From IMG/VR virus record IMGVR_UViG_3300035681_000001, positions 64,001 to 128,000 of that record: a stretch of 64,000 nucleotides of DNA. One strand, written 5' to 3'. Made by a program: the position numbers and the translations under genes. Within the stretch, counting starts at the first letter, position 1, and every line of letters starts with the position of its first letter. The stretch is from a virus. This document shows positions 1 to 62,527 of this stretch, piece by piece. A model generated the notes under the pieces. The model searched no databases. It saw only the letters and a list, made by a program, of their open reading frames with translations, and had not been told where the DNA came from.

Positions 1-90
1 ACTGTAACTTTACCTGCAGAAGGAGCAATAAATTTCTTTAGGGTGTCGAAGTTAATATCAATAGCATATTTAGGATCATGGTGACCCATA
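1..90 (-). other. Start of a probable M23 peptidase domain (cut by the window edge)
   Basis: GHHDPKYAIDINFDTLKKFIAPSAGKVTV resembles the H...YAID...APxxGKV opening of M23 peptidases. Confidence 0.55.
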
Positions 91-44853: not shown

Positions 44854-47800
44854 ATGAACCCAGAAGAAAACCTAGATCTAAATGACGAACTAGACTCTGA
44901 GCTAGGGGAACTAGGTGGCGAGGATTCAGTAAAAGACCAAATAGCAGACGAGCTAGAAGGTAAGCACGATATTGCTGACGGTGACCACCAAAGCTCAGTC
45001 AAAGAATTCTTTCGTATTTACGACATTAAGGCTGGTGATCCTTTTAAAGCCGTAGAACTAGAAAGTACTGCATTCTTAGAAAAGGTAACAGCGCAAGAAC
45101 TACAAAATGTCAATCGGCTTAATAAACAAGAAGATCAACGAGCAGCAATTAATAAAACTCTAGAGACGTACCGAGAAGCACAGTCACAAATCACACAGCT
45201 GCAAGGTAACCGCTTAAGACAGTCACTGACTGCTTACGGTCACGCTATAACAGAACGCAGCGGAGGTTACATAGGACCTCAAACAGGCCTAACGTTCAGG
45301 GCTAGAACTGAAGACTATTTAGCCTTTAGTAGATCACTAGGTACCAGCCGGCTGGATATGGCTGTGTTCCAAGTACAAAACCAAGAACTACTAGGTGGTT
45401 TTTTGCGCGGTGGTGTGCGGAAATTGCAAATAACCACTCAACTAGATGAACCTATCGCGGCCTCTAGTGAAAGTGTTAGTAAGTGGTACGAAAACGAAAA
45501 ACAGAGATTTGGTATTACAGGGCCTAACGAAGTACTAGCCAGTGCTTTTAGGAATAGCCCACACTTAGGCCGAGCTGAAGTAACTGTGAGTGGTAGTTAT
45601 ATTAAAAAACCCAACGACACCCAACGCGGCTTGATGCACGCCAAAATAGCTGCTTTGTATGAAGGAGACGAGACAAACCAAAAACTAGTAGGTGCTTTTA
45701 TAGGCACACAAAACTTTACTAGAGCTCTAGCCAACACACGTACTGAAGAAGAAACTCTGTTTATCTCCTTAAAAGGAGATCAAAAGTATCTTGACGGTCA
45801 AGATCAACTAGAACGAGGTCGCGCACTGATCAGACAAAGAATAGCTAACGAGATAGCACTAGTTACTGAAGGAATCAGAGAAAACTTTACTGAAGCTCGT
45901 ACTAGTAGGCAACTAACCACAGACATAGACCGCAAACTGCAAAGAAGAAACGTAAGCTACGGTACGCACGTGTTGCCAGTAATAGGCGAGATGCTCAGTA
46001 CCGCTGTTACTGAAAAGAGACACGTGCTGTTGAATATGCAATATATAGAAAAGTTCTTAGCTGCTGAAGGAGAACACGAAGGTAAAATCTACGGCAGCTT
46101 AGCCACACTAGCCGCCGAAGGTCGCTTAACAGTAGCTGTCTCTGAGACCAGCTTAGCTAAAGGTACAGGCTATTACTCTTTAATGGACCAAGTAAGAAAA
46201 GATACGGTCAACAACACCTTAATACAAACACTGCTACAAAAAGATGCTTTTGCAGTGCTACCAACCAGGTTCTTACACACTAAAAGCATTGCTATTTTTG
46301 GAGACTCAACGCTAAGTAACTTAGTTGAGTACGGTATAGGCTCACAAAACCTTAGTGAAGAAAAATACACCTCCGCAGAATTAAACTTTGAAACTTGGGT
46401 CCGGTTAACTCAAGGTGGTCTGCCAGGAGACCTGGAAGACGAACTAACTGCGTTGGGAGTACACAGGTCTAGTGGTCAACTAGCAGCTACAGCTAGAACT
46501 CGCTCGCAACTATATGTAGACCGCATGGGGTCTGCTGCACAAGTAGCAAACTTAATAGACAAATTGGGTGAAATGGGTGGAGCCGATACACATTTGTTTG
46601 ACACACTAGAACCTGGAAAAAGGTTTAAATACAACGTTAGGTATAAGACTCCCAGCTTGATTCCAAACCTAGCCCAAAACTCAGCCCGATCAATAGCTGA
46701 AAAGGCTATGTCTGGTGTAGATATCTACCTACCTAGTGCTAACAACTACCGCTTGAGCGCGACCATAAGTGAAGAATATACTCACGACCTTAAAAGAAAA
46801 ATGCCGGTGGTTTACCTAAACACCGGCAACCGTATCATCACAGGTGCTATCTATCGTATAGCACGAGACCTAGAAGGTCAGGTTATGCTGCCTAACGGCA
46901 AAATAGCTAAAGCTGGAGACACCATAAAACTTGGTGCTCTAGAGGTATTCCAAAGTTTTATTGAAACCGTAATCAAAGCCACTGAGTACGAACGTAACTA
47001 CCGAGCGCCGGTACTGGTACTTAGGTCCATGGGTGTTGAAAAGCTAAGTCGATTTATTGACTCAGTACCTGGAGACCCGCAGGGTAAAAGAGACTTACTG
47101 TACCAACTACTAAGTCCAGAAAATAAAGGACAGCAAGCGCAAGGTTCACTAGAAGCTATACGACTATTACAATCCGTAATACGAGCTGACCCTACCGGCC
47201 GACTGCAGCGGATGGAAGCCGGGTTTGTGTCTACTGGTATTAGAAACGTAGTATCAAATATCTCAGCTAGTTTCTTACAACCACACGAAGAACTTTACTC
47301 AGGTGGGCACCTGACAGCAATCATGCCTATATTTGGCATGGACAATACCATATTCAGTAAGCACTTTAGTGGTAACTCCGGCACCGCTTTACTAAACCCT
47401 TACAAGCTGTCTCACTACGACTTAATAAACACCGGCGGGTTGGATTTATTCCGTGGAGTACAAGATTCTACTCAAATACGTACTACTAACTGGCAAGACC
47501 TAGAAGGAGGGTTGTACCACTCAGAAGGCGGCCCTACCAAAGTAACTGACATAGCCCAGTTCATCAGATCTACTAAAAATATGGCTGTTATTAATGAACA
47601 GTCGTTAAGAGAGTCTCAAGCGTTAGGGTTGACCAGCAACATACAGCTCACACCTGGTACTAATTTATACGTGATGCCTTACGGCAAGGCAGAACAAATT
47701 TCCGCTCGCTTGAAAAACAAAAAATCAGAACGGGTACTGCTAGAACCTAGTGACGAGCTGCTGAAATTCATACAACAAGGAGGCCGGAATGCTAATAACT

Positions 47801-50800
47801 TAATCCAAAACAACAACTTAATCAGAAATGCAGTTTCAGTAGACTTACCACCTGAGCAATTTGCTATCTATCGTCAGATCCTGGCAGAACAAAGAGGTGA
47901 TACTCAAAAAACTCTAGAAATACTACGTGAAAGGCAATCCAACCCTTTAACTGCTATGCAAGGGTTGTTAGGTGCTAGTCAGTATCAAAAAGTACTGATC
48001 TCAGCCGGTTTTAGTATGCAGTCTGATTTCTCGTACTTTAATGAAAAGTATCTAGACAGACCCTTAGTAGACCAAACCATAAAGTCTTACTCTTTTAGCA
48101 GCGATAACGTAGGCTCAGCTTTAACGCTAGCCAGACAAGCTAAAGAAAAACTCCGTAAGGGTACTATATTCCTAGCCGAGGACATAGACCTAGAAGATTA
48201 CTCTAGGCTAGTAGGAGGAGAAAGCTATTCCGACGCTTTTGTAAAAGCGTACCTAGTTAAAAGCGAAAGTACTTATTCGTGGGGTGAAAACGTAGATGCA
48301 GAAACCAGAAAACAACTGAACAAAATGGTGTTTGTGGATCTTACTGATCCTGCAAAACCCATACTAAAACTTAAAAAGGGTGTTTACTACAACGACAGCC
48401 AAGAAATACTGGGTCTACAAAAGATCGGTAAAATGAACTCTACTTCTCTAACCTTTACCATTGACGGCCTAGAGGTACAAAGCAGAGAAAACCGCAAGCT
48501 CAGAACCTTCACTCTACCGCTGGATAACTCAGCTATTTCTCGTCGAGCTCACCGATCTATAGCTGTGTTAAAAGAAGATGCTATGGTCAGCCAACAAGGA
48601 CCCAACGTACGATTAGAAGCTACTTACAGTACGTTGCTGTTTGGTCAAACCGGGATGCGTACGATAGGAGCCAAAGGTCCTATCTATTCCGTGATGGAAA
48701 GTTTCTTTGAAGGACTAGCTAAAAACAGAGGTTGGGATAACAGCGCTGTAGCAGTAATAAACCCTAGTCAGATCAAAGACTATAACTTCGGAGACGGGTT
48801 CTCTAAGCTGTCTGATAAAAACCACTTTTTAAGAACTGGTGCAGCTGACGCTGACCAACTAGAGTACTTTAGGCAAGGTCTGCAATACCTAATAGACACT
48901 GGTAGGAACACTGAAAAAAACCTACTAGCACGTGGCGGCCCACTAAAGTGGGGTTGGGACATATATGAACTTTTAGGAGACTTAGAGCTTAACGAAATAC
49001 AACAAATCACCACTGAACAAGCTGCAGAAAAACTCAAAAGAGTACAGCAGTTTAGTGCAAAAATCTATGGTAACAAAAACTACTTCCAAGGCGGAGCCAT
49101 AGTATCTAACACATTAACTCGCGGTCTGAGCATACTAGCCACAGTTAGCTCTCAAGCTGAAGACATCGCCACGCAAAAAGAACTGTATTTAAGTAGAAAA
49201 AAACCGGGTGCACTAGAAACAGAAATAAACTACGACAGTGTGGCACTACAAGAATACCTCTATGACTCGCAGAACCCTCGTAACCGCACTAGGGAATCCC
49301 AAGCTTTGATCTTTGGTATAAATCTAAGGAACTTAAGAGAAAACGAATTAGCGGCAGCTTTCCAATTAATGGAAGCTACGTATGGTAACAACATAATGCT
49401 ACGAGCAAACATAGACTTGAGTTTCAGCCGGATTGCCGTTTCGATGGGCATGAAAACTGAAACCAAACTAGAAGCTGCCTACGCAATGGCCATGACTCAA
49501 AACCAGCTAAAAGCGTACACTTACCAAAAAGGCGGCGCTGAAGGCCTGCAAGGTGCGCTGGTAATGCTGGCTCAGTTAAACAATCGTGTAGTAAGCACTG
49601 ACGCCGTAAGCAGATACTACTCATTTGCACAAGAAACAAACTTACTAGAATTTGGTCTTAAAGAAAAAGCCAAAAAGTCTAAAAACTGGAGGGATCAGTT
49701 AAGAGCCAACGCGTTTGTGGCTGCTTTTACGAGTAAGTACTCCATATACTCCAGACAAGACCTGGTTGAAATAGAAGAAGACCGACAGCGCCGAGTCAGA
49801 GAGGAACCTATCAAAAGTTTGGTAGACGAATTTGAAAGAGGATTGTACAGGGACATAATCCCTAAAACTGAGCTGCTAACTGCACCTACTAACATTCTGT
49901 TAAACAGAATGGAAACCTATGGCGGCATCATGAGTTCTGGAACAGTAGAGCAAGCCGCTAAAGCAATGATCGAACAGTTAAAAATAGTTAGAGGTACAGA
50001 GTTTAGAGCAGGTATGCAGCAAAATTACGGAAAATTAGAATCAGGGAAACTCACTAGTAAAAAAGCTGGTGCTAAAAGGTTTACAGAAAGTGGCAGCTTT
50101 TATAAGGAGTGGTTTTACTCAAAAGAAGCAAAATCTGATCGTTTTACTTTTACTAAAAGCATAGAAATACCATCTAATATATTCTCTCCAAAAGGGCTAA
50201 GTGAAAACTTTTTGCAATATGCAGGGTCTTTTATAGAAGAACGGTTAGGTAAAGGAAACCTACTTAAAATTACGAATTATGTCCAACTGCTAGATACTAT
50301 AAAAAAAGCAGAAACTACTCCAAGCGGGTCGCTAACATTCAAAAGTTACTACGAAAAACGCTTCAGAGAAACTTTTGATACTCCAGAGACCTTAGAGTAC
50401 TACACAAACCTAATAACTAAAAGCCGGGAACGCATTTCTAGTAACGATGGCTCAGAATACCTAGAATCCATGCGCTCCCTGGCTCTTTATGCAAAAAAAG
50501 ACTCAACACTAATGCGCACCGTACAGCAATCTCAGTTGCTGCACCTACCTATGTTAGAAATGACTGGTAGCGGTGACTCGCTAAGGTACCACCTGTCAGA
50601 TCAAGTAGTAAGTGGTGCCAGGTACGGTCTGGACATCCTAGAGCAAATTAGCTTAGTGTTCCACGGCTACAGCTCAAACATTTTAATAGAACAGCGTAAT
50701 CTACAGTCTTACTTAACAGAAGCCATCCGCAGTGGGTTGCTAAAGAAAATAACTCAAGGGATCCAGCAAGGAGAGGCTTACCAAGGCTTAGACCTAAATG

Positions 50801-53800
50801 CTAAAGAAGTAGAACTCTATCAAAACCTAGTAAACACTTTAGGTAGTACGCCGCAAAGCATTCAAACACTGTTTGAAGCTAAAGACGTAATGCGTCAAAG
50901 TGAAGGCGACCGCCTCAAGATGTCAGGTACTACCTTTGTAGGTATTAACAGTGCCTTAGTAGCTGTTAAGGACTTGATATTAGGTGACCAAATCGAGCAT
51001 GTTTTTAACACTGGAGGCACCAAAGGTACTGAAGGGTTAGCTCAAACTTTAATAAAAGAACTAAACGCAACTAGCAAACGCGCTCAAGAAGCTACAAACC
51101 AAGCTCTAGCCATAAAAAGACTGTACTTAGTCGACAGCGGCTTTAGTGACCTACCTACCGAACAAAGCTTTAAAACACAAAGCAAAGCACTAAAAGAAAT
51201 AGCAAGCGAATGGAAAACAGCCGGTAAAGATAAAGAAGCCAGAAAAGTACACGAGCTAAGGTTCTACGAAACTATGCTAGGTCTGAGTGCCGGAGACCTA
51301 AGTACAGAAGAAAAACTAAAAACCCACACTGAGAAATTGTCGTCACTATACAGAGTAGCTAATGCAGTTCGTACTGGCGCACCTTACGGCATAGCACAAG
51401 ACTCAGCTTTGATTCCAGTACAAGTCAAGGGTTTAGACGCTTTAAAAACCGCTGGTACCACTACTGGTACGTTGTTGCAGCCAGGCAGGCACAACACCAC
51501 AGCTATGATCAGCTCTAGTTTGTCGTATATGTTTACGCAACTAGGAGACTACGACGGGGATACTTTCCAAGTAGCTTTTCCTGCAATAGTACAAGAACTA
51601 GCTAAAATAAAACTTACTCAAAACAAATTAGCCAGCCTAAAACCAGGTACCGAGGCCTTTAAAAACACTTCAACAGACCTAGTTGATTTACAAAAACAAC
51701 ACACTGAAGCCATAAATGCACTTACTGGACACCTGCAGAACATCGCAGAAATGCAAAAATCTGCGCTGCAGCGGTTTAGTTCACGTTACTACGGCTTCGA
51801 TAAAGAACTACTGCGATACATGACCAATGAAGAACTGCAGCACCTTAGCTTGCAGTTCCGGGATACTATGTCAGGTTCAGACAAAGGAGCTGAGTACGTC
51901 AATGAAAGCTGGCGGCTAATCACTAGGTTAGTAAAAGCTGCTGAAGCAGTAAATCCCACTAAGCTACTTGACTACGGAACTCTATTAGAGGACTTACAAC
52001 TCACTGATGGAGAACTGAAAAAAGACCTAGCTCAGGCTTTGGACCCTGAAAAAAAGTTCACAGAAATAAACGGATTAACTGTAAGAGAGTACATAAACCA
52101 GCTGCAAATCCTTAAAAACGCAGAATTTGCAGAAACTAACGTCCGCAGCATGTTAAAAAATAGTATGGGTACTGTACTAAGCGGCGTAGAACTAGAAACC
52201 CTAGGTGCTGTAGTAGGTACTACTGGTATGGGTATGCTCGGAGTTACCTATAATTCCGTCACACCTTTGATGGAATTAGTACAAGGTCAAGAAATGGCCC
52301 AACGGGCTTTGAGTAAGCCTGAAGGTGATTCTTTGTTGCAAGGCTTAGTCAACCAAACTCAAGCAGCACTCAATACGACAGTAAAACTAGAAAAAAACCA
52401 ATTAATCAAAACACTAGACCTACAAGTAGGCATAGCCCATAATTTCTCCTTGACCACGCAGCAATTCATGCGTGATGCTGCGCTGAAGCCTAAGCAAGGC
52501 GGAGGCATACTACAGCTAGCTGCTGAATATAAGTTAAGTGAAAAGCTAAAAGAAGCTGCTAACAGTCAAACAACAGAAGAACTAAAAAGAACTGCAGTAG
52601 AACGTACTCTAAAAACTTTCATTAATACTAAAGTAGGCTCTCAACTGGGCGTAGGCAGTGCTAATAATTACAGTGCGTTCGCAGCTCTAACACTAGTAAA
52701 TGAATACTTAGGTAGTAGACTCACAGCCGAAGAAATAATAAATGATGGTATGCTAAGCAGCTACCTACAGAACAAATGGAGAGAAAACCGAGACCTAACA
52801 GCAGACCGACTAGTAGCTACCGAAATAACAAAATTACATAACCTGTTCAAAATAGACTACGTAACCAACCACATCCTAAAAGTAGACTCTAGTGTAAACG
52901 GAGGTGTACAAAGGCTAGTAGAAGTAATTAAACAGACTGCTTATGGCCAAAGTGTTAAAAATGCGGGGTACGATGACGAAGCTTACGTTAAAGGTTACCT
53001 AGACCAGCGGTTTAACAGCAAAGAATACACCGAAGGTTCAGTAGACCTACTAATACAAGGCAAACAATTTAGTCAAGAACTCCAAAAAATAGCCGCAGGA
53101 GAAAGTCCTTTAATAGGTGCTTTAGGTAAAGGTGTTTCTCAGTACCTAGCTGCAGCTACGCTGCACAACCGTAAAGGCGGAGACCAAACCGCTCGTCTTA
53201 ACTTGATGAACCAGCTAAGAACTAGTTCTGACAACTTTTACGAGAACTTTACCGAAAACGTTACTTCTAAAAAAGAAGAAACCTACAAAGCTGCTCTAGC
53301 TATAAGTGCTGTAAGTGGTCTGCTACCTATAAAAATTGCATCAGCACTTCAAAACGCTACCCCCGAGCAAAGAGGTAAGTTCTTAACTTCACCTGAAGTT
53401 CAAAATTACATAAACGCTACTTTAAGAGAGTCAGGAACCATAGCCACTGGTGTAACAGCAAACGAGCAGCAAATGCGTTTGTTAAGGCAAGTACTAAATA
53501 CTGACACTAGTGACAGCGGTACTATTCAACTTCAAGCACTATCAAGAGGTGCGGCACCTATTTCAGGTGTTGCGGAGAACCCAGAAATTGAAGCACTGCA
53601 AAGAAGCATAGACGACGTATGGGCTAAAACAGAACCTATAATGGCAGCAGAAAACCAGCAACGAATTGCAGAATCAGAAGCTCGGATAAAAACTGAAACT
53701 ACTAGGTTAGTAAAAGCTCATCGTAAGGCTGAAATATTCTCAATACTAGCTGTACCCGCATTGTTAGCTACTTTCTCAGGACAAACCCTAAAACCAGAAG

Positions 53801-54489
53801 AAATAGGCTCTATAGCCACCAACGTATTCCAAGCTGGATTGATGGCTACCAGCTTTAACAATTCAGCAGTAGGTCAGTTCTTAGCTCCTGATAAAGTAGA
53901 CGCTAAGTCCATAAAAGTCCTAGCTGAAGCTGATCGAGCTATGCAATATACCCGGTTGCGGGAGTTTGTTAGGTCTAATGAAAACCCACTAACGGGAGTA
54001 GCCCAAGCTGCTGCTTTTGAGGCTTCAGGTAGAGCTGCCAGTCATGCCGCTGCGTTGTTAATACAACGTGCAGCTCCTAGGTTAGCTGAATCAAGCGCAG
54101 GTCGAGGTACCACTGAAGTCTTAGGCGGGTTATTAGGCTTAGCTGTGAGCGGTGTATTAACCAACCGACCTATAACTGGATTAAATGAAGGCATGGGTTC
54201 AGTAGTAACCTACGCCGCTGCGGCCCTACAAAACCTACAAATTTCACTACAAGAAGCTCAAAACCGGTATATGTCTTCTTATTTAGATCCAGAAGATTCT
54301 ACTGAGATGTCCTTAAGCATATCAGGAGATACTGATTCCAGCGTTTACCCTTCAGAGCTAGAACTACAAGCTAGGACAGGCTGGGATCCCAGAGTAGAGC
54401 TCTATGATCCAGTAGCTTTTGAAGGCACTATAGATATAGAACCCCAATTACTGGGACCTGATTCCATTGAATCTATAAGCCTCGGATGA
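44854..54489 (+). CDS. 3,211-aa single-chain two-barrel RNA polymerase (probably virion-packaged) with N-terminal double-HKD PLD domain
   Basis: Beta'-like VRTGAP (R2173) and LGDYDGD (D2232-D2236); beta-like GMRTIGAKG...AVINP (1267-1304); HAK...GTQN (262-287) and HTK...GSQN (475-499). Confidence 0.8.
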   Translation: MNPEENLDLNDELDSELGELGGEDSVKDQIADELEGKHDIADGDHQSSVKEFFRIYDIKAGDPFKAVELESTAFLEKVTAQELQNVNRLNKQEDQRAAINKTLETYREAQSQITQLQGNRLRQSLTAYGHAITERSGGYIGPQTGLTFRARTEDYLAFSRSLGTSRLDMAVFQVQNQELLGGFLRGGVRKLQITTQLDEPIAASSESVSKWYENEKQRFGITGPNEVLASAFRNSPHLGRAEVTVSGSYIKKPNDTQRGLMHAKIAALYEGDETNQKLVGAFIGTQNFTRALANTRTEEETLFISLKGDQKYLDGQDQLERGRALIRQRIANEIALVTEGIRENFTEARTSRQLTTDIDRKLQRRNVSYGTHVLPVIGEMLSTAVTEKRHVLLNMQYIEKFLAAEGEHEGKIYGSLATLAAEGRLTVAVSETSLAKGTGYYSLMDQVRKDTVNNTLIQTLLQKDAFAVLPTRFLHTKSIAIFGDSTLSNLVEYGIGSQNLSEEKYTSAELNFETWVRLTQGGLPGDLEDELTALGVHRSSGQLAATARTRSQLYVDRMGSAAQVANLIDKLGEMGGADTHLFDTLEPGKRFKYNVRYKTPSLIPNLAQNSARSIAEKAMSGVDIYLPSANNYRLSATISEEYTHDLKRKMPVVYLNTGNRIITGAIYRIARDLEGQVMLPNGKIAKAGDTIKLGALEVFQSFIETVIKATEYERNYRAPVLVLRSMGVEKLSRFIDSVPGDPQGKRDLLYQLLSPENKGQQAQGSLEAIRLLQSVIRADPTGRLQRMEAGFVSTGIRNVVSNISASFLQPHEELYSGGHLTAIMPIFGMDNTIFSKHFSGNSGTALLNPYKLSHYDLINTGGLDLFRGVQDSTQIRTTNWQDLEGGLYHSEGGPTKVTDIAQFIRSTKNMAVINEQSLRESQALGLTSNIQLTPGTNLYVMPYGKAEQISARLKNKKSERVLLEPSDELLKFIQQGGRNANNLIQNNNLIRNAVSVDLPPEQFAIYRQILAEQRGDTQKTLEILRERQSNPLTAMQGLLGASQYQKVLISAGFSMQSDFSYFNEKYLDRPLVDQTIKSYSFSSDNVGSALTLARQAKEKLRKGTIFLAEDIDLEDYSRLVGGESYSDAFVKAYLVKSESTYSWGENVDAETRKQLNKMVFVDLTDPAKPILKLKKGVYYNDSQEILGLQKIGKMNSTSLTFTIDGLEVQSRENRKLRTFTLPLDNSAISRRAHRSIAVLKEDAMVSQQGPNVRLEATYSTLLFGQTGMRTIGAKGPIYSVMESFFEGLAKNRGWDNSAVAVINPSQIKDYNFGDGFSKLSDKNHFLRTGAADADQLEYFRQGLQYLIDTGRNTEKNLLARGGPLKWGWDIYELLGDLELNEIQQITTEQAAEKLKRVQQFSAKIYGNKNYFQGGAIVSNTLTRGLSILATVSSQAEDIATQKELYLSRKKPGALETEINYDSVALQEYLYDSQNPRNRTRESQALIFGINLRNLRENELAAAFQLMEATYGNNIMLRANIDLSFSRIAVSMGMKTETKLEAAYAMAMTQNQLKAYTYQKGGAEGLQGALVMLAQLNNRVVSTDAVSRYYSFAQETNLLEFGLKEKAKKSKNWRDQLRANAFVAAFTSKYSIYSRQDLVEIEEDRQRRVREEPIKSLVDEFERGLYRDIIPKTELLTAPTNILLNRMETYGGIMSSGTVEQAAKAMIEQLKIVRGTEFRAGMQQNYGKLESGKLTSKKAGAKRFTESGSFYKEWFYSKEAKSDRFTFTKSIEIPSNIFSPKGLSENFLQYAGSFIEERLGKGNLLKITNYVQLLDTIKKAETTPSGSLTFKSYYEKRFRETFDTPETLEYYTNLITKSRERISSNDGSEYLESMRSLALYAKKDSTLMRTVQQSQLLHLPMLEMTGSGDSLRYHLSDQVVSGARYGLDILEQISLVFHGYSSNILIEQRNLQSYLTEAIRSGLLKKITQGIQQGEAYQGLDLNAKEVELYQNLVNTLGSTPQSIQTLFEAKDVMRQSEGDRLKMSGTTFVGINSALVAVKDLILGDQIEHVFNTGGTKGTEGLAQTLIKELNATSKRAQEATNQALAIKRLYLVDSGFSDLPTEQSFKTQSKALKEIASEWKTAGKDKEARKVHELRFYETMLGLSAGDLSTEEKLKTHTEKLSSLYRVANAVRTGAPYGIAQDSALIPVQVKGLDALKTAGTTTGTLLQPGRHNTTAMISSSLSYMFTQLGDYDGDTFQVAFPAIVQELAKIKLTQNKLASLKPGTEAFKNTSTDLVDLQKQHTEAINALTGHLQNIAEMQKSALQRFSSRYYGFDKELLRYMTNEELQHLSLQFRDTMSGSDKGAEYVNESWRLITRLVKAAEAVNPTKLLDYGTLLEDLQLTDGELKKDLAQALDPEKKFTEINGLTVREYINQLQILKNAEFAETNVRSMLKNSMGTVLSGVELETLGAVVGTTGMGMLGVTYNSVTPLMELVQGQEMAQRALSKPEGDSLLQGLVNQTQAALNTTVKLEKNQLIKTLDLQVGIAHNFSLTTQQFMRDAALKPKQGGGILQLAAEYKLSEKLKEAANSQTTEELKRTAVERTLKTFINTKVGSQLGVGSANNYSAFAALTLVNEYLGSRLTAEEIINDGMLSSYLQNKWRENRDLTADRLVATEITKLHNLFKIDYVTNHILKVDSSVNGGVQRLVEVIKQTAYGQSVKNAGYDDEAYVKGYLDQRFNSKEYTEGSVDLLIQGKQFSQELQKIAAGESPLIGALGKGVSQYLAAATLHNRKGGDQTARLNLMNQLRTSSDNFYENFTENVTSKKEETYKAALAISAVSGLLPIKIASALQNATPEQRGKFLTSPEVQNYINATLRESGTIATGVTANEQQMRLLRQVLNTDTSDSGTIQLQALSRGAAPISGVAENPEIEALQRSIDDVWAKTEPIMAAENQQRIAESEARIKTETTRLVKAHRKAEIFSILAVPALLATFSGQTLKPEEIGSIATNVFQAGLMATSFNNSAVGQFLAPDKVDAKSIKVLAEADRAMQYTRLREFVRSNENPLTGVAQAAAFEASGRAASHAAALLIQRAAPRLAESSAGRGTTEVLGGLLGLAVSGVLTNRPITGLNEGMGSVVTYAAAALQNLQISLQEAQNRYMSSYLDPEDSTEMSLSISGDTDSSVYPSELELQARTGWDPRVELYDPVAFEGTIDIEPQLLGPDSIESISLG

Positions 54490-57017: not shown

Positions 57018-57243
57018 CTAAAGAACAACTAGGGTACTGGGGTTCTAGCAAAGCAGTCCAAGCTTTAGTACCGTCATCACTAAGAGAAAGTACAGCAGAA
57101 GACTGCACCACTACACCTGGGTAATGAAAATACAACGCTTCAGAGTCCTTAGTAACAGACAACCCACAAGGGTGTGTTATTACTACTCGACCACCCGCAC
57201 GAGTAACGCGTAGTCTGAAAAATTGCCTTAAAAGCCAGAACAT
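56965..57243 (-). CDS. Hypothetical protein
   Basis: ATG 57243 overlaps the PAAR stop (TGATG); 92 aa. Confidence 0.55.
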   Translation of the reverse strand: MFWLLRQFFRLRVTRAGGRVVITHPCGLSVTKDSEALYFHYPGVVVQSSAVLSLSDDGTKAWTALLEPQYPSCSLVAPDALVQLRSADRCST

Positions 57244-57539
57244 CAACCTACCAACGTAGTAACAGAACCTGGTCCGGTAACCAGACCAGCGCATGAATCA
57301 GCATCACCCACTCGTATTACCAAAGCACCCCCTATAAAAGTACAGGCGGTACTGGGATACAAACTCGTAGGGTCACCGCACACCCCTAGGTCCCCAGCTA
57401 CTACTGGTACCTTACCACTTACTAAAGTAGTAACCGACCGCCCGTACACTATGCTACCCGTAGGTGACCAAGTTCCTTCAGGAGGATGAGGACAACCCGG
57501 ACAAGTTAGCGAGTCCCCCACTAGAGCTAATGGTTTCAT
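57243..57539 (-). CDS. PAAR-repeat spike-tip protein
   Basis: ALVGDSLTCPGCPH...TLVSGKVPVVAGD...FIGGALVIRVGDADSCAGLV. Confidence 0.85.
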   Translation of the reverse strand: MKPLALVGDSLTCPGCPHPPEGTWSPTGSIVYGRSVTTLVSGKVPVVAGDLGVCGDPTSLYPSTACTFIGGALVIRVGDADSCAGLVTGPGSVTTLVG

Positions 57540-58329
57540 CGCGTACCCAAAAAACCCATTCTACAAAGTAGTCTCCATCAACTATAGCAGCTAAATCTCC
57601 CTTACGACCTAAAGGCGCTTCGTAGGGACCAAACTCACCTACTACCCTTAAGTCCAACAAGTCACCAGTAGGTACCGGAGGGATACCTGTTGAGTTATAG
57701 TGAGTTTCTAAAAAGCGCTCTAGTAACACCGGATATTCACCTAGCCCAGCTTGTGGTAAACGTGAAGTATTAGCGGCACCACCTAACGACGTAACAAACG
57801 AAGGTGTTCCCGGAGCGTTGATTAAAGCAGTCACCTGAGCCCTTAAAGCGCCAACACGGTCGATACTAACTACAGACCCACCAGTAGGGTCTAGCACCAC
57901 CGGCCACCGGGCGTCCCACACTAAGTCAGAAGCTGTAGGTACGGGAATACCAGCCCAAACATACCCAGTAGTAGTACGAGTGTAGTAACCTTCAAAAGGC
58001 AACGCTAAAGGATCCGGTGGCGGGTAAACACCTCCCACTATAGGAGTAGTAACGTAAGTATACGAGTCTAAATAGAGCTCTAAGTCCACCGCATTACCTA
58101 AATGCCTAAAAGCTGCGCCGGCGGAACGAGTGTAGTTAGCTGTTAAGTAAACAGCTATGTTCTCAGGCCCTAAAGTAAATAACGGTGAATAAACTAACGC
58201 CGCAGCCATAACTGACTCAGACCGCGCCGGTACGTAAGGTAGTTGAGGGTAAATAAAACCCTCACTAACAGCCGCCAACAACCTAGAGTGTAACCCCGGC
58301 GGGTCAGTATTAATAGGGTAATAAGTCAC
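57478..58329 (-). CDS. Hypothetical protein
   Basis: 283-aa ORF overlapping PAAR by 62 nt. Confidence 0.6.
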   Translation of the reverse strand: MTYYPINTDPPGLHSRLLAAVSEGFIYPQLPYVPARSESVMAAALVYSPLFTLGPENIAVYLTANYTRSAGAAFRHLGNAVDLELYLDSYTYVTTPIVGGVYPPPDPLALPFEGYYTRTTTGYVWAGIPVPTASDLVWDARWPVVLDPTGGSVVSIDRVGALRAQVTALINAPGTPSFVTSLGGAANTSRLPQAGLGEYPVLLERFLETHYNSTGIPPVPTGDLLDLRVVGEFGPYEAPLGRKGDLAAIVDGDYFVEWVFWVRDETISSSGGLANLSGLSSSS

Positions 58330-58769
58330 GCTACCGCCGAACTAAGTAAAAACCCTAAAGAACAATGAGTCTCACTAATACCACCTAGCAAATTCATACC
58401 ACCCAACGACCGAGGGTCTGTGCTGGTGGCTAAAGCCGAATTAGCTTCGTAAACAGACTTAAGAACGGCGGTGTTAGCTGTTACTAAAGCATCCAAATAA
58501 GAACCAGCAGGTAACACACCAGTCACAGGAACCAAAGTAGTTAGTTCACTCAACAACGCCAAAGTCGCGGGCGCCCGTACACCTACACCCCTAAGGTACT
58601 CAGCCAAACGGTCTACGTTAGCATAAGACTCTTTGTAAACCCGGTCATACAACAAGTGGTGCGCGTAGAAATTAGAACCGGAGGTGTTCCAGTGCGCGTT
58701 CGAAGCCAACAACGCAAAAGAATAAACATCAGCAAACGCAGTTAACAGCTCAGACACTAGCAGTAACAC
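58326..58769 (-). CDS. dps: Dps/ferritin-like protein
   Basis: AHWNTSGSNFYAHHLLYDRVY...DRLAEYLRGVG fits the Dps ferroxidase signature. Confidence 0.85.
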   Translation of the reverse strand: MLLLVSELLTAFADVYSFALLASNAHWNTSGSNFYAHHLLYDRVYKESYANVDRLAEYLRGVGVRAPATLALLSELTTLVPVTGVLPAGSYLDALVTANTAVLKSVYEANSALATSTDPRSLGGMNLLGGISETHCSLGFLLSSAVA

Positions 58770-58905
58770 GAACGATACCAGTTTACTACGGGGCTAACCC
58801 AAAAAGAAAAAAAGAATAGCCAAAATTACGTAAAAAACCAAAACCCAAAACCCAACCCAAAACCCCCACTTAGGGTTTAAAGCCCAGAATAGGAAAACTA
58901 AGTGG

Positions 58906-59043
58906 AAAAATCCGAAATGGAAAAAATGGTGCGCGGGAAAACGTGAAATGGATTAAAGATTAAAAAATCCGAAATTTGGAAAAAATGGTGCGCAGGAAAA
59001 TCTGGTAAAAACCGAAATTTGGAAAAAATAGTGCGCGGGAAAA
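58906..59043. repeat. Three imperfect direct repeats of about 37 bp in an A-tract region
   Basis: 58906-58941, 58963-59000 and 59007-59043; consensus AAAAA(T)CCGAAAT(TT)GGAAAAAATRGTGCGCRGGAAAA. Confidence 0.9.
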
Positions 59044-59108
59044 TTAGTCTGTTATAGGTGTAACACCCTAGCGTTTCAGTCTTAGTGACTTAATCAGGTG
59101 TTAGTACA

Positions 59109-59163
59109 CCCCCCGACAACTACCTAGTCGGGGGTTTTTTTGTGGGCTTCTTACTACACCCAC
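59109..59163 (+). terminator. Array element E1: terminator-like hairpin + T7 + GTGGG/CCCAC hairpin
   Basis: CCCCCGAC-N9-GTCGGGGG-T7-GTGGG-N12-CCCAC, then GGAG RBS. Confidence 0.85.
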
Positions 59164-59172
59164 GGAGTTAAC

Positions 59173-59370
59173 ATGACCAAGACTGCTGTCTTGTTTGCCC
59201 TTGCAGCTCTCTTTGGAGGGCTGTTAATGGGAAGGGCTTCGGCCCCTCAACCTTTCAGTACCGAGGAAACTCGGTACTGCAAGGAATCCTTGCGTACTGC
59301 AAGGACGGAGCAAAAGCTCCGCAAGGCCTTAGTGGAGGCCTTGACTCCCTTAGGAGTTGAGGTCCAGTAA
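59173..59370 (+). CDS. Small protein (65 aa) with N-terminal hydrophobic/signal-like segment
   Basis: GGAG RBS; MTKTAVLFALAALFGGLLMG. Confidence 0.8.
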   Translation: MTKTAVLFALAALFGGLLMGRASAPQPFSTEETRYCKESLRTARTEQKLRKALVEALTPLGVEVQ

Positions 59371-59381
59371 CTAACTTAACT

Positions 59382-59429
59382 AAGCCCCCGGAAACGGGGG
59401 CTTTTTTGTGGGCTCTTTATTACACCCAC
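59382..59429 (+). terminator. Array element E2
   Basis: AAGCCCCCG-GAAA-CGGGGGC-T6-GTGGG-N12-CCCAC. Confidence 0.88.
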
Positions 59430-59438
59430 GGAGTTACA

Positions 59439-59615
59439 ATGACCTTCACCATCGCCGTCTATTGCCAACCCGTTGGGGCCACCCCCCAACGGAGGGGCAG
59501 CCACAGTGCTGCCTCCTTTGAAGAGGCGGTCGCACTGGGCGACCAACTCGTGGCCAACTACCACGAGGTCCTCAATACTGAGGGCTACGAGGTGTATTGC
59601 GAACTCATTGAATGA
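59439..59615 (+). CDS. Small hypothetical protein (58 aa)
   Basis: GGAG RBS; ATG 59439. Confidence 0.8.
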   Translation: MTFTIAVYCQPVGATPQRRGSHSAASFEEAVALGDQLVANYHEVLNTEGYEVYCELIE

Positions 59616-59651
59616 GTTTGAGACCTAAGCAAGTCCAGTAAACTGCTTACT

Positions 59652-59677
59652 AAACCCCCTGTGAAGGGGGTTTTTTT
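59652..59677 (+). terminator. Array element E3
   Basis: AAACCCCCT-GTGA-AGGGGG-T7. Confidence 0.85.
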
Positions 59678-59693
59678 GTTCTGTTTCATTCTT

Positions 59694-59777
59694 ATGGAAC
59701 TCTTTTTTGGTTGTTTTGCTGCTAACCTAGCAGCCGCAGGGCTGCTAGCTGTTATTTACCTGAGGTGCCTTAGGTAA
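59694..59777 (+). CDS. 27-aa hydrophobic peptide (absent from the track)
   Basis: MELFFGCFAANLAAAGLLAVIYLRCLR fills the space between E3 and E4. Confidence 0.6.
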   Translation: MELFFGCFAANLAAAGLLAVIYLRCLR

Positions 59778-59785
59778 ACTTTTTA

Positions 59786-59830
59786 CCCCCGGAAACGGGG
59801 GCTTTTTTGTACGTGGGTCACCATACCCAC
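59786..59830 (+). terminator. Array element E4
   Basis: CCCCCG-GAAA-CGGGGG-C-T6-GTAC-GTGGGT-CACCAT-ACCCAC. Confidence 0.88.
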
Positions 59831-59844
59831 ACTGCTTCAAAGAC

Positions 59845-60006
59845 ATGGCTGATTTCCAGATCGTCATCACCCCCTGGGGTGAAGCAAAAGTGGAGGCCTT
59901 AGGGTCTCCTGTTTTGCCCGGTTACACCGGACCGTTTACCTACCCGAAAGGGTGGGTGGTTGAGGGTGCCCTCCGGCACCTGAGGAGGTTGCACTTGATT
60001 AACTAG
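59845..60006 (+). CDS. 53-aa hypothetical protein (absent from the track)
   Basis: MADFQIVITPWGEAKVEALGSPVLPGYTGPFTYPKGWVVEGALRHLRRLHLIN fills E4-E5. Confidence 0.7.
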   Translation: MADFQIVITPWGEAKVEALGSPVLPGYTGPFTYPKGWVVEGALRHLRRLHLIN

Positions 60007-60012
60007 TCTAAT

Positions 60013-60059
60013 AAGCCCTCGGAAACGGGGGCTTTTTTGTGGGCCTCGTTAACACCCAC
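60013..60059 (+). terminator. Array element E5
   Basis: AAGCCCTCG-GAAA-CGGGGGC-T6-GTGGG-CCTCGTTAACA-CCCAC, then GGAGGT RBS. Confidence 0.88.
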
Positions 60060-60068
60060 GGAGGTAAC

Positions 60069-60608
60069 ATGTCTCGCACCAGCCGCGTCAACGGCCTACG
60101 CGACGGTCGTCGTGTGCCTAAAGCCCACCAGGGTTTTAGAAAGGTTCTGAGGGCCGAAGCCCTCAATCTGGATTTTCAGGTCCAGATTGAGGAGGATGGG
60201 ACAGATCACTCCTTTGAGGAGGATTGGACAGATCAGATGTACAACTGGGAGCAGTACAACTGGGAGCAGTACAAGTTATTAAACCGTGTCATTTATGACG
60301 ACGGTTTAGTAAAACTTGAGGTTGAAGCGTATATGCCTGTAAGGCAGTTATGCCTACACCTAAACTTAACTACGTGGTGGGGTAACCACTACGTAGGGAG
60401 GGATATTATTCCCCACTGCTCCATAAAAGGTGTAATCAAGGCTTTTAGAGCCTACGTTGAAGAGCTCAAGTGCAAAGAGGTAGAAATACCTTTTTGCATA
60501 TGTCCCTACGACGAAGACGGAAAAAGGGACTACCGAGTCTGTGTGTATCAGAAATTAGGGTTTGAAATAGACCCTGATGATCCAGATTTCCTAATCTTCT
60601 GGACTTGA
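60069..60608 (+). CDS. Hypothetical protein (179 aa), possibly GNAT-like C-terminal half
   Basis: GGAGGT RBS; C-terminal RVCVYQKLGF; family call tentative. Confidence 0.75.
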   Translation: MSRTSRVNGLRDGRRVPKAHQGFRKVLRAEALNLDFQVQIEEDGTDHSFEEDWTDQMYNWEQYNWEQYKLLNRVIYDDGLVKLEVEAYMPVRQLCLHLNLTTWWGNHYVGRDIIPHCSIKGVIKAFRAYVEELKCKEVEIPFCICPYDEDGKRDYRVCVYQKLGFEIDPDDPDFLIFWT

Positions 60609-60614
60609 TTTTAT

Positions 60615-60657
60615 ACCCCCGGAAACGGGGGTTTTTTTACGTAGGTCTAGTACCTAC
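60615..60657 (+). terminator. Array element E6
   Basis: ACCCCCG-GAAA-CGGGGG-T7-AC-GTAGGT-CTAGT-ACCTAC. Confidence 0.88.
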
Positions 60658-60671
60658 ACCACTAACAAACC

Positions 60672-60890
60672 ATGGCTATCTGCAAAACCTACTGGTCCCA
60701 AGTTTCTGCTTGGGCAGAAACCCTAATATGGAAGGGGGAGGTAAAGCTCCCTACTTCATATTCAGCTGCCTTGTTAAAGGCAGACCTGCTAGTTGCTTTA
60801 AAGCAATTAGCGGGCGAGAGCCCAGTTAAGTACCGCCTGCAAAGGCGGAGGGCGCCTTACCTGCACTTTGTGCTGGAAATAAGGCGGTAA
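60672..60890 (+). CDS. Small hypothetical protein (72 aa)
   Basis: Fills E6-E7. Confidence 0.75.
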   Translation: MAICKTYWSQVSAWAETLIWKGEVKLPTSYSAALLKADLLVALKQLAGESPVKYRLQRRRAPYLHFVLEIRR

Positions 60891-60899
60891 TCTAACTTT

Positions 60900-60959
60900 C
60901 CCCCGGAGGGTGCCCCTGCACTCCGGGGGCTTTTTTGTGCTTAGCAATTCAGCTAACAC
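60900..60959 (+). terminator. Array element E7
   Basis: CCCCCGGAG-N12-CTCCGGGGG-C-T6-GTGC-TTAGC-AATTCA-GCTAA-CAC. Confidence 0.85.
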
Positions 60960-60977
60960 TTAAGCCCTCGGAGGGTC

Positions 60978-61073
60978 ATGGTCAAATCTACTTTCGGCAA
61001 CTTTATAGCCGTACGTCGCCGTGAGCGGCGTAAGAAGCTGTGGGCTACCTTTAAGAGGTGGTTGCGCAAGTAA
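60978..61073 (+). CDS. 31-aa arginine-rich peptide (N-antiterminator-like motif; absent from the track)
   Basis: GGAGG RBS; MVKSTFGNFIAVRRRERRKKLWATFKRWLRK fills E7-E8. Confidence 0.75.
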   Translation: MVKSTFGNFIAVRRRERRKKLWATFKRWLRK

Positions 61074-61081
61074 CTGCCTTT

Positions 61082-61124
61082 AACCCCTACGGGGGTTTTT
61101 TTGTGGGCTATCGTTAACACCCAC
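61082..61124 (+). terminator. Array element E8
   Basis: AACCCC-TACG-GGGG-T7-GTGGG-CTATCGTTAACA-CCCAC, then GGAGGT RBS. Confidence 0.88.
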
Positions 61125-61133
61125 GGAGGTAAC

Positions 61134-61400
61134 ATGTCGAGACTACAGCACCGCTTCGCAGCACGGGCTTACAACCTGTGCTGCGAGGCGGAAGCCTACG
61201 GTTTCGTCAATTCGGGCTGGTTACCACCGGCTCGACTTGACGACGACCACCTCCAGGTGTGGGTTGCAACGCTTTTAGGGCGCTGCAACCACTTAGCAGA
61301 GTTCTTGCTAAGGGCTACTCTGGTTTATCCAGAGGCAGCACACACCCTTAACCGGGTACGTCGGCTGGTCAAAGACTACCGACGTGGCCACTTAGGTTAA
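61134..61400 (+). CDS. Hypothetical protein (88 aa)
   Basis: GGAGGT RBS; ATG 61134. Confidence 0.8.
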   Translation: MSRLQHRFAARAYNLCCEAEAYGFVNSGWLPPARLDDDHLQVWVATLLGRCNHLAEFLLRATLVYPEAAHTLNRVRRLVKDYRRGHLG

Positions 61401-61402
61401 CT

Positions 61403-61448
61403 AAAACCCCCGTAAGGGGGTTTTTTTGTGGGCCTCGTTAACACCCAC
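61403..61448 (+). terminator. Array element E9
   Basis: AAAACCCCC-GTAA-GGGGG-T7-GTGGG-CCTCGTTAACA-CCCAC. Confidence 0.88.
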
Positions 61449-61458
61449 TAAGCTAACC

Positions 61459-61833
61459 ATGTTCAACCTATTCCGTGCCGTTGCCGCTGATGCCTCCACC
61501 CCCATGGAAGCAATTAGTGCGCAACAGCAGCAGGACACTGTTGCTACCGAGGTCGCGTTGAAAGACGCGACTAAGATCAAGCAACAGGCAATGCTGCTAC
61601 GCAACGCAGCTGCAGACGCAAAACGTCTGCGGTTAGAGTTGCGCAAAGCCGAAAGGGTACAGGCTGAAGCCTGTGCTGAATTAGTTGCTGCTGAGGCAGA
61701 GGTTCTGGCTCTTCTTGATAGAGGGTTGGATAATCTTACTTTGGAGCCCCAAGGGACTCCAGAACCACAGGTCCCAGAACCTCAGTTGCAATTTGTAGCT
61801 GAAGACTTTCCTGCCCCGCCTGCACTGCCTTAA
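61459..61833 (+). CDS. Coiled-coil protein, paralog A (124 aa)
   Basis: ATG 61459; Ala/Leu/Glu heptads and a Pro-rich tail. Confidence 0.8.
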   Translation: MFNLFRAVAADASTPMEAISAQQQQDTVATEVALKDATKIKQQAMLLRNAAADAKRLRLELRKAERVQAEACAELVAAEAEVLALLDRGLDNLTLEPQGTPEPQVPEPQLQFVAEDFPAPPALP

Positions 61834-61847
61834 TTAAGTAATCAACT

Positions 61848-61894
61848 AAGCCCCCGGAAACGGGGGCTTTTTTGTGGGCTCCGTTAACACCCAC
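61848..61894 (+). terminator. Array element E10
   Basis: AAGCCCCCG-GAAA-CGGGGGC-T6-GTGGG-CTCCGTTAACA-CCCAC. Confidence 0.88.
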
Positions 61895-61904
61895 TGAGCT
61901 AATC

Positions 61905-62282
61905 ATGTTCAACTTTCGTGCCCGTGCTGCCAAGCCTACTTCCACCCCCATGGAGGCAGTGCTTGCTCAGCAAGCGGCAGATGCTGCCGGTACTGAAGCC
62001 GCGTTGAAAGACGCGGTTTCAGTAAAGAAGCAGGCCGTGTTGCTTCGCAATGCGGCAGTAGACGCAAAACGTCTGCGGGTTGAGCTATTAAAGGCTCAAA
62101 AAGTGCAGGCTGAGGCTTGTGCTGAACTGGTCTTAGCAGAGCAAGAGGTATTTGATCTTCTTAACGGAGGGTTGGATGCTCTTACTCTGCAGCAACCAGA
62201 GCAGCCAATGCCAACGCCGCCTCCACTGCCAGTGATCCAACCACTAGCAGTGGAGGACTACTTCCCTCCTAAACTTAACTAA
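61905..62282 (+). CDS. Coiled-coil protein, paralog B (125 aa)
   Basis: Shares STPMEA, LKDA, LLRNAAxDAKRLR and VQAEACAELV with paralog A. Confidence 0.8.
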   Translation: MFNFRARAAKPTSTPMEAVLAQQAADAAGTEAALKDAVSVKKQAVLLRNAAVDAKRLRVELLKAQKVQAEACAELVLAEQEVFDLLNGGLDALTLQQPEQPMPTPPPLPVIQPLAVEDYFPPKLN

Positions 62283-62294
62283 AATTAAGTAACT

Positions 62295-62318
62295 AAGCCC
62301 CTTAACGGGGGCTTTTTT
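62295..62318 (+). terminator. Array element E11
   Basis: AAGCCCCT-TAAC-GGGGGC-T6. Confidence 0.85.
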
Positions 62319-62321
62319 GTA

Positions 62322-62389
62322 AGCTTTAGCTTAACCAATAAGAGCCGTTGCTCTGGCTGTGTATCGCACAGGTTGGTTAAGTTAAAGCT
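62322..62389 (+). ncRNA. Candidate three-way-junction structured element
   Basis: 17-bp closing stem with one G-T pair (62322-62338/62373-62389) enclosing AGAGC-CGTT-GCTCT and CTGTG-TATCG-CACAG; no ATG-initiated ORF in this unit. Confidence 0.65.
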
Positions 62390-62474
62390 GCACCCCCTAA
62401 ACGTGCTAGCACATACGGGGGAAACTACTACTACTTATTAGTACACGGGGGCAAGTTTATAACCTTAACGTACA

Positions 62475-62527
62475 TCCGGAAACGGGGGTTTTTTTGTCCT
62501 GGCAATTCAGCTAGGCGTTAACACCCA
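62475..62527 (+). terminator. Array element E12 (degenerate first hairpin)
   Basis: TCCG-GAAA-CGGGGG-T7-GT-CCTGGC-AATTCA-GCTAGG-CGTTAACACCCA. Confidence 0.7.

Follow-up and report, generated by a model that had tools for sequence, protein, structure and literature searches.

The window analysed here is a 64,000-nucleotide (nt) stretch of an uncultured tailed phage, bases 64001–128000 of the 189,763-bp IMG/VR record IMGVR_UViG_3300035681_000001, which was judged 96% complete. It contains an array of small one-gene units, each headed by the same composite element: a GC-rich hairpin, a T-tract and a GT that opens a second hairpin with a covarying stem. Upstream of the array, a 3,211-amino-acid (aa) protein with a two-HKD phospholipase D (PLD) fold is encoded in the virion module. 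The array, the covarying hairpin, the PLD fold and their conservation in relatives are shown by the analysis. We propose that the element acts as a combined stop and start signal read by a phage RNA polymerase (RNAP). This model, in which polymerase activity, packaging, RNA 5′ ends and re-initiation are all inferred, is offered tentatively, having nearly as good a chance of holding as of failing.

A terminator-punctuated array with a composite element

Terminator-like sites were called genome-wide, on both strands, by a uniform RNAfold criterion. Of 44 sites in the genome, 13 were found on the plus strand of one 6.2-kb stretch (binomial P 1.9e-13). A GT lies directly 3′ of the T-tract at 11 of these 13 sites, compared with 6 of the 31 sites elsewhere. 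The array comprises 14 elements between genome bases 123,109 and 129,068, 12 of them within the window at 59109–62517. An earlier note on this stretch had described about 12 terminator-punctuated units with no room for a conventional promoter; this description holds, and the array continues about 2.6 kb farther. The composite element consists of a C5-loop-G5 hairpin, T6–7 and a GT opening the second hairpin, after which come a Shine-Dalgarno sequence and the ATG. Its first part has the structure of an intrinsic terminator, with a GC-rich stem-loop followed at once by a U-tract. Conservation is limited to about positions −23 to +2, that is, to the C-run, loop, G-run, T6–7 and GT. The loops of the first hairpins are mostly 4 nt long (GAAA, GCAA, GTAA, TTAC etc.).

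The second hairpin was tested on 40 elements from three genomes, those of this phage and of two relatives, L009 and L013, whose giant proteins are 54% identical to the one described here. A helix of at least 5 bp starting no more than 3 nt from the T-tract was present in 26 of the 40 elements, while shuffled sequences gave 3.6 ± 1.8 (maximum 13). GT is always first and AC always last in this helix, and the remainder of the stem covaries. Between GTGGG..CCCAC and GTCCGG..CCGGAC the stem is changed and the loop kept; GTAGGT..ACCTAC, GTGCAG..CTGCAC and GTCCTAGC..GCTAGGAC are further stems, and GTATGTAG..CTACATAC and GTATATCG..CGGTATAC form a compensatory pair. Orthologous genes in different genomes carry second hairpins with differing stems.

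The distance from T-tract to ATG is only 17–40 nt, taken up mainly by the hairpin and the Shine-Dalgarno sequence. No sigma-70-like site was detected in the array, and 10 kb contained 3 such sites against 8.3 in shuffles; the consensus used was that of E. coli, which may not be that of the host. Enrichment analysis of 8-mers in all upstream regions revealed no second promoter-like motif in the genome, and hairpin-T-tract-GT is the sole feature common to all units. In all three genomes the first gene, too, has an element ahead of it, placed between divergent genes where no plus-strand gene lies upstream, and no T-tract element follows the last unit. Since the elements equal the units in number, an element is more aptly viewed as heading a unit than as closing one.

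Both L009 and L013 have the same architecture, with 13 elements each, and unit content varies among the three genomes through insertions and deletions at the elements. In a more distant relative, L017 (giant protein 28% identical), GT plus GTCTGG..CCAGAC was found at the end of the contig, so the element is conserved as far as this degree of divergence. The 149.6-kb L017 contig stops within the array (25773), about 1 kb beyond the ferritin-like gene, perhaps because the assembly broke at repeats or because the genome ends there. Relatives with giant proteins at 23–27% identity (L021, L025 and L027) have dense terminator-punctuated arrays of small genes in the equivalent position. In these arrays (L021:20229–22645, L025:20186–22712 and L027:18408–19495) a hairpin that follows an ACA(G/C)CC motif encloses the Shine-Dalgarno sequence (AGCCTGTAAGGAGGCT).

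All array features lie on the plus strand. Just 5′ of element 1, in the divergent intergenic region, three direct repeats of ~38 nt with the pattern AAATCCGAAAT(TT)GGAAAAAAT.GTGCGC.GGAAAA and a block of ~110 nt occupy positions 58914–59108. The block is conserved at the nucleotide level in relatives with proteins only ~54% identical, and a role of the region as main promoter, operator or origin-like sequence at the array head is conceivable. Element 1 (59109–59163; C-run/G-run hairpin, T7, GTGGG..CCCAC) lies 5′ of the first array gene, unit 1 (59173–59370), an open reading frame (ORF) of 65 aa with no known family. Element 2 (59382–59429) has a GAAA loop, T6 and GTGGG..CCCAC and heads unit 2 (59439–59615; 58 aa). 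Element 3 (59652–59700; T7, GTTCTGT..ATGGAAC) is followed by a strongly hydrophobic ORF of 27 aa (MELFFGCFAANLAAAGLLAVIYLRCLR), which is alone in its unit (59694–59777). Element 4 (59786–59830), with a GAAA loop, T6 and GTAC plus GTGGGT..ACCCAC, precedes the 53-aa ORF of unit 4 (59845–60006), and element 5 (60013–60059) the 179-aa ORF of unit 5 (60069–60608). In element 6 (60615–60657) T7 is followed by AC plus GTAGGT..ACCTAC, a stem that covaries with the GTGGGT..ACCCAC type; unit 6 (60672–60890) encodes 72 aa. Element 7 (60900–60957) contains a 9-bp compound hairpin kept in L009 and L013, T6, and GT plus a hairpin of the GCTTAGC-AATTCA-GCTAA type. It heads unit 7 (60978–61073), an arginine-rich ORF of 31 aa (VRRRERRKKLW) that is an insertion relative to L009 and L013. 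Element 8 (61082–61124) and unit 8 (61134–61400; 88 aa) come next, and then element 9 (61405–61448), which has a GTAA loop. Units 9 (61459–61833; 124 aa) and 10 (61905–62282; 125 aa) are adjacent paralogues, 69% identical and each with its own element (element 10, 61848–61894), which points to duplication of a whole cassette.

Element 11 (62295–62318) consists of a hairpin and T6, and the next GT opens a non-coding unit (62319–62474). Pairing in this unit begins at the first G, from which a Y-shaped three-way junction is formed, followed by a conserved GTGCTAGCAC..GGGGGAAACTA block. The three-way junction in a unit of its own, reported in the earlier note, was thus recovered as a Y-shaped fold. 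Its position is conserved in L009 and L013, with z-scores of −2.9 here, for the fold of 62319–62496, and −3.4 in L009, and five pairs show compensatory changes among three sequences, two of which are nearly identical. No Rfam family was found for the array or the Y-shaped RNA. Element 12 (62475–62517; GAAA loop, T7, GTCCTGGC-AATTCA-GCTAGG hairpin) heads unit 12 (from 62527 to 64000), an ORF of 613 aa in all that extends beyond the window end; two more elements with their units follow. The array proteins belong to no Pfam or PHROG family, except for one PHROG match of unknown function on the 613-aa protein. Such familyless proteins are typical of early host-takeover genes.

A giant virion-module protein and a second candidate polymerase

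The giant ORF (44854–54489, plus strand) lies between the portal/capsid and baseplate/PAAR genes. It is open for 3,211 aa and has H262/K264 and H475/K477 where the earlier note had placed them. A word-indexed search found four relatives at 54–82% identity. Only 19 representatives were found in 1.84 billion proteins by exhaustive phmmer search, most of them also giants (3,000–5,400 aa; 26–33% identity). Searches of Pfam, PHROGs and PDB (phmmer and profile) with the giant protein gave zero matches, as did tblastn against 50,697 phage records; protein-language-model look-ups returned nothing usable for the giant-protein core or for the 2,319-aa protein described below. The neighbourhood, consisting of capsid, protease, portal, giant gene, baseplate component, PAAR and ferritin-like gene, is kept in all relatives with readable contigs. 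Judged from gene position alone, in a portal–baseplate interval conserved in relatives, the giant protein is a plausible candidate for packaging into the virion. A Kyte-Doolittle scan identified hydrophobic segments at aa 2813–2833 and at aa 2961–2979 (53734–53790, plus strand), the latter conserved in the family consensus. These C-terminal segments and the acidic termini would fit an ejected, membrane-contacting protein.

A two-HKD PLD-superfamily domain covers aa ~140–560 (45271–46533, plus strand). The two HKD sets, H262, K264, N287, E299 (45637–45750, plus strand) and H475, K477, N499, E513 (46276–46392, plus strand), show complete or at least 90% conservation across 18 aligned family members. 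On the basis of this alignment, AlphaFold2 gave a model of aa 101–620 that was confident (predicted local distance difference test (pLDDT) 82.4, predicted template modelling score 0.86) and has the duplicated α/β PLD fold. Foldseek searches of PDB with the model matched phospholipase D, PPK1, PLD3, PssA, Tdp1 and F13 with probability 1.0 and E down to 2e-10; the best structural neighbours are F13, PLD3/PLD4 and PssA, at 11–14% identity. The Pfam PLDc and PLDc_2 profiles did not match the giant protein at E up to 10, and the sole Pfam trace of PLD in the family is a faint precomputed PLDc_2 match in homologue P0016. Compared with known two-HKD PLD enzymes, the K-to-GxxN spacing is longer and the domain sits inside a 3,211-aa virion-module protein. 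The PLD domain announced in the earlier note is borne out by the conserved HKD sets, the model and the fold searches, and as modelled it is confirmed to have a single-chain, two-HKD enzyme fold. Zucchini and Nuc are single-HKD dimers. The label "Zucchini-type" given in that note was rejected, because the giant-protein domain has two HKDs on one chain, with F13, PLD3/PLD4 and PssA as its best neighbours. The substrate is not given by the fold, because lipid-acting and nucleic-acid-acting members score alike; it could be membrane lipid during ejection or single-stranded nucleic acid.

For the core of the giant protein, aa 1850–2800 were aligned with 19 homologues (20 sequences, 20–82% identity). 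Just 11 residues are invariant, and all 11 fall inside three short motifs, R2014..G2025 with G2044, R2173-x-G-A-P2177 and G2231-D-Y-D-G-D2236. The first, R2014-Q-S-E-G-D-R-L-K-M-S-G2025 (50893–50928, plus strand; R2014 and G2025 invariant in the 20 sequences), resembles RQNLLGKRVDYSG of β′. The second, R2173-T-G-A-P2177 (51370–51384, plus strand; R, G and P invariant), resembles β′ NRAP, and the third (51544–51561, plus strand; invariant in the 20 sequences) is a candidate metal-binding loop of the DxDGD type. The counterparts in E. coli β′, assigned by eye, are RQNLLGKRVDYSGRS, NRAP and NADFDGDQMAVHVP; their order is the same, and the intervals are longer in the giant protein. From these three β′-like motifs we consider it somewhat more likely than not that the giant protein is a two-barrel RNAP.

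Several results weigh against this assignment. Profile searches of the genome with PF00623 and PF00562 found nothing, and RNAP homology received no significant support from sequence or profile searches of Pfam, PHROGs and PDB. In hhalign comparisons of both candidate families with single sequences of E. coli β′, β and phi14:2 gp66 the probability was <1%, and only the DxDGD loop was aligned, onto rpoC 459–473 (NADFDGD...), again at <1%. An AlphaFold model of aa 1850–2800 had a pLDDT of 58 (<50 around the motif) and was mostly helical, and the double-psi barrel was not seen in it. Foldseek and VIA searches with this low-confidence model returned helical noise only, and because the model is poor these empty searches carry no weight. 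The claim of the earlier note that the giant is RNAP-like holds only at the level of its β′-like motifs, including the invariant GDYDGD, and every Pfam, PDB, hhalign and fold test was empty. As noted in the P23-45 study, similarity cannot be detected outside the DxDxD region for many of the accepted families of two-barrel RNAP (PMC10770324), so that the negative searches do not exclude membership. A β-like barrel at GMRTIGAKG..AVINP, where R..KGP residues are conserved, was considered and not taken as evidence.

A second protein with a GDxDGD motif, 2,319 aa long, is encoded just 3′ of the array (genome bases 129720–136679). A Pif1-type helicase forms its C-terminus (Pfam E 1e-8 to 3e-11; PDB Pif1 chains E 1e-14), and its N-terminal 1,750 aa have no family match. 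The N-terminal part contains LLKGRTKIGGRRVGLPCIP, NSRAP and GGDCDGD at a spacing near that of β′; the trio can also be written LLKGRTKIGGRRV / NSRAP / GGDCDGD, its first member being GKR-like. Homologues of 3,199–4,243 aa that span both halves are present in 4 of 5 distant-relative records, the fifth record being itself a 40% fragment. The homologues retain G(G/A)(K/R)..P.IP, R(A/S)P and GDxDGD. Between the giant-protein and 2,319-aa families, hhalign detected a weak alignment at the catalytic loop (P 0.003, probability 10%), and BLASTP of the motif region of the 2,319-aa protein against β′ found nothing. By its motifs, this GDxDGD-Pif1 protein is a plausible second candidate polymerase. The signal ahead of its gene, past the last array unit, is ATACAAATTA after a different hairpin. 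The upstream region (genome 129653–129720; L009:27493–27618) consists of a hairpin AGCGCC..GGCGCT, (A/T)TACAAATTA and a second short hairpin, and is conserved and without a T-tract.

Reading of the element and competing explanations

We propose that the stretch is an immediate-early region together with a giant virion-module protein that possibly transcribes the array. There would be at least 14 autonomous one-gene cassettes, 13 with genes of no known family and one with the Y-shaped non-coding RNA. The first hairpin and the U-tract would end the upstream transcript when formed in RNA, and the next RNA would be started at the G immediately 3′ of the T-tract; each RNA would then have a base-paired 5′ end and a 3′ terminator hairpin. 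Because no sigma-70-type promoter was found and only hairpin-T-tract-GT is shared, the start would most likely be made by a phage enzyme that recognises the element. The geometry would be that of the LUZ7 and N4 hairpin promoters, with a G start ~14–15 nt from the hairpin centre; the measured distance of the G is 14–15.5 nt for 26 of 37 elements. Candidate enzymes would be the 3,211-aa protein and the 2,319-aa protein encoded right after the array, which together would parallel the virion/non-virion RNAP pair of P23-45. Whether the element acts as a start signal we regard as evenly balanced. A fuller scheme, in which the GC hairpin and T-tract serve as both RNA terminator and DNA hairpin promoter, read by ejected PLD-bearing giant two-barrel RNAPs and with the Pif1-fused polymerase acting later, is unlikely in its entirety.

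Some observations count against a start at the element. The 14–15.5-nt distance from hairpin to G follows equally from an ordinary terminator stem plus T6–7, and a few orthologous units are without the second hairpin. The relatives at 23–27% identity do not have GT plus a hairpin directly after the T-tract; CT or AT comes next there, and then an A/T-rich stretch and the ACA(G/C)CC motif. Fold energies of both hairpins are equal on the plus and minus strands, so that selection for an RNA hairpin cannot be separated from selection for a DNA hairpin. The phage also encodes a sigma-70-family protein of 640 aa (genome bases 7696–9618; PF04542, E 2.6e-18), which implies that host RNAP is used for at least part of the transcription programme; a search for the host from this gene led to one 4-kb metagenome scaffold.

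The sigma gene also speaks for viewing the array as an ordinary early region, transcribed by host RNAP with a host sigma factor or the phage sigma-70-family protein from promoters that deviate from the E. coli consensus. The elements would then be plain terminators, as their canonical form allows, and the second hairpin a 5′-untranslated-region structure for mRNA stability or translation. The repeats would be kept through cassette shuffling, as in the PeSL cassettes of T4, which agrees with the PeSL-like insertions and deletions of units between relatives (PMC4122927). The giant would be an ejected or internal virion protein with a PLD acting on lipid or nucleic acid, and GDYDGD would be no polymerase site, in line with an RNAP homology that is not significant in any search. 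The absence of sigma-70-like sites from the array, which speaks against this explanation, was established with an E. coli-type consensus that may not apply to the host, and the A/T-rich stretch with ACA(G/C)CC in the distant relatives could be a linear promoter element. However, −35 and −10 elements plus a leader do not fit into 17–40 nt that are mostly hairpin, and the units have no common motif besides hairpin-T-tract-GT. Also against transcription by host RNAP are the concentration of all invariant residues of a 951-aa region in three β′-like motifs and the co-occurrence of another GDxDGD protein in which NSRAP and GKR-like motifs are present. We consider this explanation possible but doubtful.

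Read-through followed by processing appears improbable. One or more leader promoters at 58914–59108 would feed a terminator-ignoring polymerase, and the long transcript would be cut at the U-tract/G junction by a host RNase (E, Y or III) or a phage nuclease, giving monocistronic RNAs with a protective hairpin at either end. The leader 5′ of element 1, strongly conserved and with three repeats, and the structures that start precisely at the G are as this scheme would have them. Yet 14 canonical terminators in a row would halt most polymerases and make a single host-polymerase read-through transcript unlikely, and an element before the first gene would be unneeded unless the leader were to be removed. 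In the version put forward in the earlier note, the giant-protein PLD cuts the RNA at the U-tracts. The PLD is real and its neighbours include the single-strand exonucleases PLD3/PLD4, but F13, PssA and lipid-acting PLDs score equally and the fold does not point to RNA; PLD3 and PLD4 are, moreover, exonucleases rather than site-specific endonucleases. This version has no support, as nothing links the domain to cleavage at the U-tracts. Equally part of that note was a lambda N-like role for the arginine-rich peptide of unit 7, which would bind GAAA-loop hairpins and tune read-through of the array. Lambda N contains RRRERR and P22 N contains RRHERRRKL. The 31-aa sequence has RRRERR followed by KKL, its ORF comes with an element and a Shine-Dalgarno sequence that belong to it alone, and GAAA loops are found in 6 of the 12 first hairpins of the window. 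But GNRA loops are frequent in terminators generally, a boxA-like partner was not identified, and L009 and L013, with complete arrays whose loops are GCAA, TCGC or TTAC, contain no RRxERR-type ORF. The peptide therefore cannot be an essential part of the system, and an N-like function is very improbable. Of the four parts that had been expected to co-occur in relatives, the giant protein, the array and the structured RNA do so, and the peptide, encoded by an ORF in its own unit, does not.

Related systems and genomic setting

Parallels to the proposed stop-and-start element and its polymerases come from several phage systems, the nearest promoters being the hairpin promoters of N4-like phages and the nearest cassette architecture the PeSL of T4-like phages. 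P23-45 encodes a two-barrel pair, gp96, a virion RNAP fused to the tape measure, and gp64, a non-virion RNAP (PMC10770324). Shared with P23-45 are two DxDxD-type proteins, one in a giant virion/tail protein and one among the first-transcribed genes, small and clustered pre-early genes, unusual conserved motifs at pre-early terminators, and continued use of host RNAP later, suggested here by the phage sigma gene. In contrast, the present proteins have no detectable sequence or profile similarity to those of P23-45. The present carrier is not a tape measure and has a PLD domain and hydrophobic C-terminal segments, and its partner is a Pif1-helicase fusion. The P23-45 promoters are linear AT-rich or GC-rich motifs, whereas here hairpin-T-tract-GT would be read, by enzymes whose polymerase activity is predicted from motifs. 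The crAss-like phage phi14:2 gp66 (PDB 6VR4; bioRxiv 10.1101/2020.03.07.982082) is likewise a giant of the structural module, mostly without recognisable homologues, with one conserved aspartate triad and early promoters lacking a sigma-70-like motif. It differs in having DFDID instead of GDYDGD and in lacking PLD. Its early transcripts showed no shared upstream motif (bioRxiv 10.1101/2020.03.07.982082), while the present element is highly regular.

The early and middle promoters of LUZ7 consist of GC-rich hairpins, and transcription from them starts at a G located 13–15 nt from the centre of the hairpin (PMC9163698). The present element would have in common with N4 and LUZ7 a short GC-rich DNA hairpin upstream of the start (PMC9163698, PMC4496689), G as the preferred start nucleotide and the position of that G, at 13–15 nt in LUZ7 and, for the candidate start, 14–15.5 nt in 26 of 37 elements here. 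In each case early genes are expected to be served by an injected polymerase. The polymerases of N4 and LUZ7 are, however, T7-like single-subunit enzymes, and their early promoters have 3-nt loops where those of the array are mostly of 4 nt. The present hairpin also doubles as an intrinsic terminator with T6–7, and the transcript would begin with a second hairpin. The T4 PeSLs are similar as repeated stem-loops around arrayed small early genes of no family, with stems built from G and C runs and with units gained or lost at the elements between close relatives (PMC2839356, PMC4122927). A PeSL contains a near-consensus sigma-70 early promoter, whereas the present element has no −35/−10 or room for it, and its T-tract runs straight into GT and the covarying hairpin. 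We regard the system as a variant of the virion plus non-virion RNAP phages and of the T4 PeSL cassettes, the mechanism being an as yet unproven proposal.

If both proteins are polymerases, they would constitute a new, very divergent branch of the two-barrel RNAP superfamily and a virion/non-virion pair, PLD-bearing in one member and Pif1-fused in the other. The element of ~25 nt, with a fixed start nucleotide, would then surpass in regularity every promoter/terminator signal so far seen for such enzymes, and start-site finding by phage two-barrel RNAPs would become testable in vitro on short templates. Under a conventional reading, too, the array is a clean natural case of compact cassettes with RNAs hairpinned at both ends. 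It is also a likely reservoir of host-takeover or anti-defence genes.

Structural genes, including a Mu-like portal, a Phage_cap_E capsid gene and a baseplate component, occupy the minus strand of the window up to ~44.8 kb; a PAAR gene is found in relatives. The giant plus-strand ORF is followed by three plus-strand genes and by a short minus-strand block that ends in a ferritin/Dps-like gene. Beyond it, a plus-strand block of >100 mostly small genes runs through to the record end, and the array forms the initial 6 kb of this block. The ferritin/Dps-like gene (58326–58769, minus strand; PF00210, E 1e-6) is divergent to the array, and its position is kept in relatives, where the PAAR gene adjoins it. 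The tail module contains another giant ORF, which has a full length of 4,148 aa in the genome and of which the 3′ part lies at 3–11774 on the minus strand of the window.

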